64,000 nucleotides of DNA. Source: Octopus vulgaris (Eukaryota). Both the position numbers and the translations under genes were made by a program. Shown piece by piece: positions 3,684-25,615 of the stretch. The first letter of the stretch is position 1, and every line of letters begins with the position of its first letter. Location: assembly GCA_951406725.2 (NCBI GenBank), contig OX597830.1, positions 35,836,001 to 35,900,000 of the forward strand, in the 5' to 3' direction. Below the pieces are notes generated by a model, which did no database searches, had not been told where the DNA came from, and worked only from the letters and a program-made list of their open reading frames with translations.

Positions 3684-3887
3684 GTGACCGCGTGTGTACC
3701 GTTGGCGATTTTTCCCCTCCGTCTTCCCTTCTCTGGATCTTTCCTTTTCCTATGTTTCTGACGAAGAGCTCCGCTCGAAACGTTAAGCCCTCCTTCTTCC
3801 CTTCCTTCCTGAGCGTCCAATAATACTATATTTGTTCCACGTCCTCGCGTTGTTGTGTTTTCTCTTTGTGTTTTCATGTTTGGATTA

Positions 3888-23329: not shown

Positions 23330-23522
23330 CATCTAATTTTATGGTTCTGTTTGCTAGAATTAACAGTCAAACGTCTCTTAAATCGCACTCTACCCCCTGG
23401 GAAAGGTTACACTAATCAAGGTATTTAGAAATGCTGAGAAATATAGAATGGCTGGAATGGCTTTTACAGAAGATCTGCTCCATTAGACATGACCTGGAGA
23501 GAAACAACATCAACAACAACAA
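23330..23522 (+). repeat. Dispersed repeat E (ctagaa..agcagccaaa...gacctggggctaaacaacaac)
   Basis: Homologous segments at 24330-24535, 24700-24900, 25640-25790 and 32200-32385. The (CAA)n tail suggests a retroposon. Confidence 0.55.
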
Positions 23523-23544
23523 TATTATACAGTTCAATATTTAA

Positions 23545-23794
23545 GAGATGAGGAATTACGCACATTATTTACATTATTTACATTTGACGGATATTTGTTC
23601 TCATCTTTTTTATTGTTAACATGACTTATATGGCGTATTGGTTAAGAGCGCGGGCAACTAACCACAAGATTCCGAGTTCGATTCCAGGCAGTGACCTTAA
23701 TAATAATAATTATTATAATTAGTAGAAGAAGAAGAAGAAGAAGAAGAAGAAGAAGAAGAAGAAGAAGAAGAAGAAGAAGAAGAAGAAGAAGAAG

Positions 23795-23830
<36 letters not shown>

Positions 23831-23998
23831 AATAACAACAATATTGAAAAATACCTTGGGAATGAGAACCCAGGTTCGAAATTTTCCCAAGACACCTGAT
23901 GAAGGCTGGAGAGTATATCAGCCAAAATGTTGTGTTAGCAACAAACAAGATGAGGACAAATATCCGTCCTCATCTTATGCAAATAATGTGAATAACAA
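23545..23998 (+). mobile_element. Composite element: inverted terminal segment, tRNA-like head, microsatellites, hammerhead-like motif
   Basis: A box TGGCGTATTGG 23631-23641; B box GAGTTCGATTCC 23674-23685; (TAA)(GAA)(CAA)n; acac-CTGATGA-a-ggctg/cagcc-AAAA-tgtt-gtgt at 23892-23935. 23585-23621 is an inverted copy of 23933-23968. Confidence 0.65.
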
Positions 23999-24009
23999 TA
24001 TTTTACATA

Positions 24010-25304: not shown

Positions 25305-25615
25305 ACTAGGTTAGGGTATTAGGCTCACGATCGTAAGGTTGTGAGTTCGATTCCCGGCAGCGCATTATGCTCTTGAGCAAGACATTTTATTCCACGTTAA
25401 TCCAGTTCGCGCTCAGCTGGCAAGAATGAGTAATACCTTTAACAGAAAGGGCCAAACTTGTTGCATTCTGTGTTACACTGAATGTCACCGAGAACTATGT
25501 GAAAGGCTCGCGTGCTTGTAGACTGCTCAGATGCTTGCACATTAATTTCAGGAGAATGCTGTTCCGTTGATCGGACCAACTGCTACTCGCATCGTCGCAA
25601 CCGATGGAGTGCCAC
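25305..25615 (+). mobile_element. SINE family C
   Basis: ggttagggt..gagttcgattccc (B box), then ctcttgagcaagaca...ctcagctggcaagaatgagt. Confidence 0.8.

Follow-up and report, generated by a model that had tools for sequence, protein, structure and literature searches.

A stretch of 64,000 nucleotides from Octopus vulgaris (referred to here as the window) contains a short insertion in which a tRNA-like A box and B box stand ahead of a hammerhead-like motif. A first-pass annotation, made from the letters alone, read this as a SINE or retrozyme that is driven by Pol III, carries a ribozyme and is moved by the machinery of a Penelope-like element (PLE). Does such a combination represent a separate non-autonomous element, a chance nesting of two repeats at a single place, or a part of the PLE itself?

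The window insertion and its family

The coordinates of the insertion are given in Table 1. The A and B boxes, the spacer, the hairpin, helices I and II and the CTGATGA core of the first-pass annotation were all found where it had placed them. The insertion is 5'-truncated with an inverted end, and its identity as the pseudo-LTR of an autonomous PLE is close to certain. As had been noted, the sequence that follows the hammerhead is repeated in inverted orientation upstream of the head (E 2.6e-9), but the left limit of this repeat is at approximately 23529 and not 23545. A target-site duplication, which the earlier reading did not mention, flanks the whole. The inverted arm starts 1 nt past the predicted hammerhead cleavage site, and there is only one hammerhead in this copy. 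The region 23850-23945 forms a fold which includes the hairpin and has a z score of -3.64, with 0/200 shuffles equally stable. Searches of the window locus and of a cleaner copy against Rfam matched neither tRNA (RF00005) nor a hammerhead, and no tRNA was detected in the window by ARAGORN. The small rearrangement in the tail yields a near-perfect 30-nt inverted repeat at 23947-23976. Elsewhere in the window, a B-box-like match at 25335-25360 (+) is part of another tRNA-like head.

Table 1. Features of the insertion (positions in the window).
Feature	Position	Strand	Remarks
Left target-site duplication	23518..23531	+	13/14 identical to right copy; last bases overlap element end
Inverted arm, PLE tail with long (~+35 nt) end	23529..23621	-	
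6-nt junction between inverted and direct arm	23622..23627	.	sequence
Direct arm	23628-23993		
tRNA-like head of pseudo-LTR, +5 to +74	23628..23697	+	95.7% to family majority; tRNA +1 would be 23624
A box TGGCGTATTGG	23631..23641	+	one change from family majority
B box GAGTTCGATTCC	23674..23685	+	
(TAA)(GAA)(CAA) microsatellite spacer	23698..23842	+	(AAT/AAC)n, length variable across family
Hairpin upstream of hammerhead	23855..23889	+	includes TTTT at 23882, absent from most copies
N-terminal relic of PLE ORF	23862..23990	+	frame spans hairpin, hammerhead and tail
Minimal type I hammerhead	23892..23935	+	predicted cut 23931/23932
Hammerhead helix I	ACAC 23892-95 / GTGT 23932-35		
Hammerhead CTGATGA	23896-902		
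Hammerhead helix II GGCTG/CAGCC			
Hammerhead AAAATGTT	23924-31		
PLE tail, short end	23936..23993	+	small local rearrangement near 23969-23979
Right target-site duplication	23994..24007	+	pairs with 23518-23531, 13/14

The family is large. In the microsatellite-rich genome of 2.8 Gb, a query with the hammerhead and tail returned 3,755 candidates, the best 40 of which were 89-97% identical, and an exact 29-mer of the tail occurred 4,870 times compared with 0 for its reversed control. Nine insertions were present in 80 evenly spaced 10-kb stretches, which extrapolates to some 31,000 in the whole genome, with a Poisson range of roughly 14,000-60,000.

The combined head and hammerhead recur in many copies, as the first-pass proposal needed: 28/29 loci selected on the head also hold the hammerhead, and the head was present in 22/29 and 16/29 loci of two sets selected on the hammerhead. 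In 864 kb of unselected DNA, every match to the head was part of this PLE. A SINE head and a PLE end that were nested by chance at the window locus only would show neither pattern. Nothing was found in favour of such nesting, and this family-wide co-occurrence rules it out, leaving it a negligible probability.

The terminal repeat of an autonomous Penelope-like element

The pseudo-LTR of an autonomous PLE comprises all of these parts, from the head through the (AAT)n spacer, hairpin and hammerhead to the tail. An endonuclease-like frame ends just upstream of the head at locus L003, and 27/29 loci selected on this region run through a short UTR into the head, with RT motifs upstream; an autonomous element with the same terminal segment, which the earlier reading had suggested looking for, exists. 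The RT matches Pfam RVT_1 (E 3e-8, L063) and has the motifs GLAMGSPLSP and LRYVDD, with the motif YSIPCSCG..YKGET placed C-terminal to it. The putative endonuclease region has no direct match in Pfam; the C-terminal region matches P0015 (E 2e-23), which itself hits PF01541 (GIY-YIG). From its domain order and linker features, the element probably belongs to the Penelope/Poseidon clade. The repeat, ORF and repeat follow each other in direct order at L500 and L501, and the pseudo-LTR also adjoins the beginning of the ORF (L137 and L141 among other loci). An open frame crosses the hairpin, hammerhead and tail, running on into the ORF in L148, and the ORF relic in the window resembles the N-terminus of P0005, a homologue from another organism (E 3e-5). 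On inspection by eye, the single frameshift in the majority sequence traces to the scaffold copy, from which a gap of 10 nt was carried over.

The 3' ends fall at two sites approximately 35 nt apart, 46 short and 44 long among 90 coordinate-ordered copies. Once three duplicates were removed, an inverted arm was found in 51/87 insertions, and in 45/51 of these a long end is paired with a short one. The target duplication score was at least 7 in 25/51 two-armed insertions, compared with 1.7% of 299 mismatched pairs. Both arms share the same variant at hammerhead position N7 in 69/75 dimers, indicating that the two arms come from one RNA or one source. The earlier suggestion of Penelope machinery with a Penelope-style inverted end was right, and two-site tails, inverted arms and target duplications are described as PLE signatures (PMC8557442, PMC3846280).

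Several further observations were made on the junctions. The two flanks of L334 are mutual reverse complements, and thus the inversion reaches into host DNA. Arms truncated within the (AAT)n spacer often abut (AAT)n ends of other repeats (L271, L294, L337, L378, L340, L344, L385, L384, L278 and L354), which suggests 5' joining by microsatellite homology at these arms. Recurrent junctions lead from the ORF at about 250-280 nt to the pseudo-LTR (L133, L138, L140, L149, L152 and L157), three of them to approximately -6 of the head, and this part of the ORF is possibly an acceptor for template jumps. Fragments of other PLE families were also seen (L196:7144-8250, L212:5616-6074 and L117:2816-3152); these have 26-43% identity to homologues and contain sense TTTT.

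It may be asked whether the short copies are a non-autonomous lineage in their own right, a SINE or retrozyme that branched off the PLE and is propagated by solo masters. The family has the tRNA-related head with A and B boxes that is one mark of a tRNA-derived SINE, and ORF sequence accompanies only 1/9 randomly sampled insertions and about 9/90 pattern-selected copies. Because promoter and tail are both retained in solo copies, these could be transcribed anew and mobilised in trans. However, a comparison of short with ORF-attached copies (36 vs 43 arms) gave 0 diagnostic columns at p<0.02, and divergence was equal for arms that begin at the head, ORF-attached arms and 5'-repeat arms (5.3, 5.7 and 6.1%, respectively). 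As neither columns nor age differ, no separate SINE lineage is seen, and in 27/29 loci the head follows the ORF. Most copies are solo or lie head-to-head; they do not form head-to-tail arrays, which argues against a retrozyme. The separate SINE or retrozyme of the first-pass annotation is therefore not supported, since the whole unit including the tRNA head is the pseudo-LTR of the autonomous PLE, and we consider a split lineage improbable.

The majority sequence of the hammerhead, taken over 300 arms at loci not selected on it, is ACAC-CTGATGA-A-GGCTG-loop-CAGCC-GAAACGTT-GTGT, with its core also written CTGATGA..CCGAAACGTTGTGT, and represents a minimal type I hammerhead within the pseudo-LTR. 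The consensus thus restores the GAAACGT core, as had been predicted. CTGANGA is present in 193/238 arms and GAAACGTT in 106/238, with both in 89. The two deviations of the window copy both lie on CpG sites of the family majority, in agreement with their earlier attribution to CpG decay, by which G12 and C15.2 were lost. G12 has a role in hammerhead activity, and because of its loss the window hammerhead is likely to be inactive. Outside CpG sites, one core position is clearly polymorphic, N7 (49 A of 253), at which hammerheads tolerate variation. The motif has an extra base after A9, a G10.1-C11.1 pair and a palindromic 15.2-16.2, the three features described for the minimal hammerheads of PLEs, and is an ordinary member of that group (PMC4209133). 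Its predicted activity requires either dimerisation through the AACGUU palindrome or assistance from protein.

There is a slight excess of arm 5' ends just past the predicted cut and at the homologous sites, the inverted arm of the window included. Among 339 arms, 14 end at positions 89-93 and eight at 67-88, about four being small deletions or fold-backs. This is no more than a hint that templates cleaved by the hammerhead lie behind the excess, since the signal is confounded by a GTTAAC palindrome.

Another high-copy repeat, unrelated to the first, was observed at 3685-3885 (+) in the window and also has a minimal type I hammerhead (~3749-3786, CTGACGA...GAAACGTT). It is about 200 nt long, T-rich and lodged in (TA)n with a fixed, sharp 5' end. 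No A or B box was seen in it, and no link to an ORF was found in 13 copies. A search gave 1,319 candidates, of which the best 40 were 96-100% identical, and it occurs in 7/80 random stretches and twice in the window.

The tRNA-like head and the proposed start of the RNA

The pseudo-LTR opens with a 74-nt tRNA-like segment in which the A and B boxes of the majority sequence match the consensus. Of 35 distinct genomic tRNA sequences it aligns best with Arg(TCG) (z 8.1), only slightly ahead of further isotypes, and it has neither a cloverleaf fold nor a match to RF00005. A comparison with 81 PLE loci of other organisms, only some of which extend beyond the end of the ORF, gave no match to the head and no case of an A box and B box followed in order by a hammerhead, although a lone B-like match was seen in L449. 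An initial scan of metagenomes found no relative.

The positions at which the arms end were determined for 79 head-bearing arms, after correction by hand, in which one duplicate was removed and three arms that had small deletions were counted as ORF-attached. For arms that reach +4, 31/41 end within -7..+4 of the tRNA start, compared with 1/10 arms passing -8 that terminates within the following 53 nt (p 1.6e-11). Inspection by eye placed an end at about -6..+4 in 5/9 randomly sampled insertions. In contigs from the runs of three other organisms, the commonest loose ends are at -7 (76, 83 and 66 contigs) and at +1/+2 (25, 27 and 28). Three RNA runs of a related organism gave reads on both strands with no sharp start or end. 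The end of the ORF or its UTR was found by eye in direct order before the head in 0/30 loci with a junction of repeat and ORF start, of which only about five reach the head. Strand transfer was also considered, as deletions of at least 3 nt cluster in the head of ORF-attached copies, but was set aside since these loci are mostly selected on the endonuclease and are biased.

The reading preferred here, at a probability of roughly 0.6, is that the tRNA-like head with its A and B boxes acts as a promoter which fixes the start of the RNA approximately 6-7 nt upstream of tRNA +1, and that the polymerase, as we infer, is most likely Pol III. Any repeat whose boxes are intact would give rise to an RNA that begins at about -6/-7, with help from TATAA where an ORF precedes. 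The RT of the element would then prime inside the tail, which is the start of the ORF, at one of the two sites and copy to the 5' end of the RNA; priming at the ORF start has been reported in vitro for Poseidon_Ac (PMC11167929). Such priming would give a SINE-like cDNA of about 300 nt that is inserted as it is, and a switch onto a second strand would give the inverted arm. Copies with ORF sequence would arise where a long RNA is primed at its 3' tail, or where synthesis jumps from the 5' end of the RNA to a copy lying downstream, and many junctions of ORF start and repeat fit template jumps.

An alternative is an ordinary PLE pseudo-LTR with Pol II as the polymerase, directed for instance by the TATAA at the stop codon of the ORF; the A and B boxes would be left over from an old capture of a SINE or tRNA, and the pile-up of ends would be due to a Pol II start or to self-priming at a palindrome. 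TATAA is located at -34, overlapping the stop codon, in 26/30 ORF-attached copies, and as it would place a start near -6 it fits Pol II equally well. TATA-like boxes were seen by eye before the hammerhead in the control PLE repeats L420, L422 and L498, and one is described for Pen2a_Av, in an account that also reports palindromes at the 5' ends of PLE pLTRs and at their inverted junctions (PMC3846280); in Penelope, an internal promoter lies within the pLTR (PMC2377424). The second hammerhead repeat has its sharp 5' end without A or B boxes. A short palindrome, TGCCC-AC-GGGCA, coincides with the pile-up in the octopus family, and several -7 ends, as well as the loose-end consensus of the contigs from other organisms, are fold-backs. 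Many ends at -7..-2 are nevertheless not self fold-backs, being joined to unrelated flanking sequence or to a different portion of the element. The Pol II reading further needs three coincidences, namely an end at the start of an A/B-box promoter, boxes that match the consensus and a body free of TTTT, and it appears unlikely, although it is the more serious competitor of the promoter reading than a split SINE lineage.

The third of these coincidences concerns TTTT on the sense strand, which is present 0 times in the 2,429-nt majority body compared with 4.2 expected (P 0.012, all copies counting as one ancestor); on stricter nulls the deficit is weak (P 0.089 for Markov-1 and P 0.12 for a synonymous shuffle). 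In 121.9 kb of natural copies there are 42 sense TTTT against 239 expected (0.34 per kb), compared with 318 against 233 expected in the 81 PLE loci from other organisms and 3.0 per kb in other PLE ORFs. TTTT is absent from 3/40 control PLE loci of at least 1.2 kb. One of these, L435, has 4.3 expected and is free of TTTT without a tRNA head, which counts against the promoter reading.

Tentatively, the promoter reading may be extended to the coding element, which could be transcribed by Pol III from end to end, from a captured tRNA promoter into a terminator-free RNA of about 2.7 kb. We hold this to be possible but distinctly less probable than a promoter-set start. Internal priming on the 5' part of this Pol III RNA would then mass-produce the SINE-like copies. 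Pol III RNA is uncapped, and its translation would need an unusual route.

Related systems and significance

The octopus family shares with the EN+ PLEs of the Penelope/Poseidon type, Poseidon_Ac (PMC11167929) and Adineta Pen2a (PMC3846280), a single ORF with RT and a putative C-terminal endonuclease, a pseudo-LTR that includes the start of the ORF and overlaps a minimal hammerhead, an optional tail of 30-40 nt at one end, an inverted 5'-truncated arm and a short target-site duplication. The promoters described for such elements are internal and TATA-less in Penelope (PMC2377424) and a putative TATA/Inr in Pen2a, and the sections on them do not mention a tRNA-like A/B-box head. A PLE with a minimal hammerhead is ordinary, and the unusual part is the tRNA-like A/B-box head within the pseudo-LTR.

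The SINE-like Sm-alpha repeats of Schistosoma likewise have a type I hammerhead downstream of a Pol III-type promoter; they differ in being non-coding tandem repeats and are not described in the account cited as the terminal repeat of a coding element (PMC6765202). In the TRIMp3 elements Cassandra, Helenus and Ajax, the terminal repeat contains a Pol III promoter of tRNA or 5S origin, an arrangement that has been proposed to originate by insertion of a SINE into the repeat. They are, however, non-autonomous LTR elements with PBS and PPT, whereas the octopus repeat belongs to a coding element, and their autonomous partners are argued to need Pol II (PMC10886601). Non-LTR retrozymes (bioRxiv 10.64898/2026.07.22.740005, PMC7761336) and non-autonomous Chlamys elements such as MRC1 (PMC8557442) are likewise short PLE-related units, with or without a hammerhead, that are thought to be moved by PLE enzymes. 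The retrozymes form head-to-tail arrays and are said to be promoter-less, whereas the octopus copies are solo or head-to-head and indistinguishable from the repeat of the autonomous element. Octopus SINEs and PLEs have been catalogued in accounts that draw no link to a tRNA head (PMC13282606, PMC8967140). No paper on a tRNA-headed repeat of a coding PLE was found in the literature searched, and the family may already be catalogued in Repbase, Dfam or the repeat library deposited with PMC13282606. It is likely that many of the short copies are wrongly annotated as SINEs of tRNA type or as tRNA pseudogenes.

The accepted view is that Pol II transcribes autonomous retrotransposons and Pol III transcribes SINEs (PMC10886601). 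A coding PLE with an A/B-box promoter in its terminal repeat would blur this line and would offer a direct route from a PLE to a SINE-like element. As the putative RNA start, the two putative priming sites and the target duplications are marked in tens of thousands of copies of this family, the origin of PLE pseudo-LTRs and inverted ends becomes directly testable. Should transcription by Pol III from end to end prove true, the PLE would be its own SINE, and the octopus family would provide a snapshot of the birth of a Penelope-dependent SINE or of a repeat like Sm-alpha.
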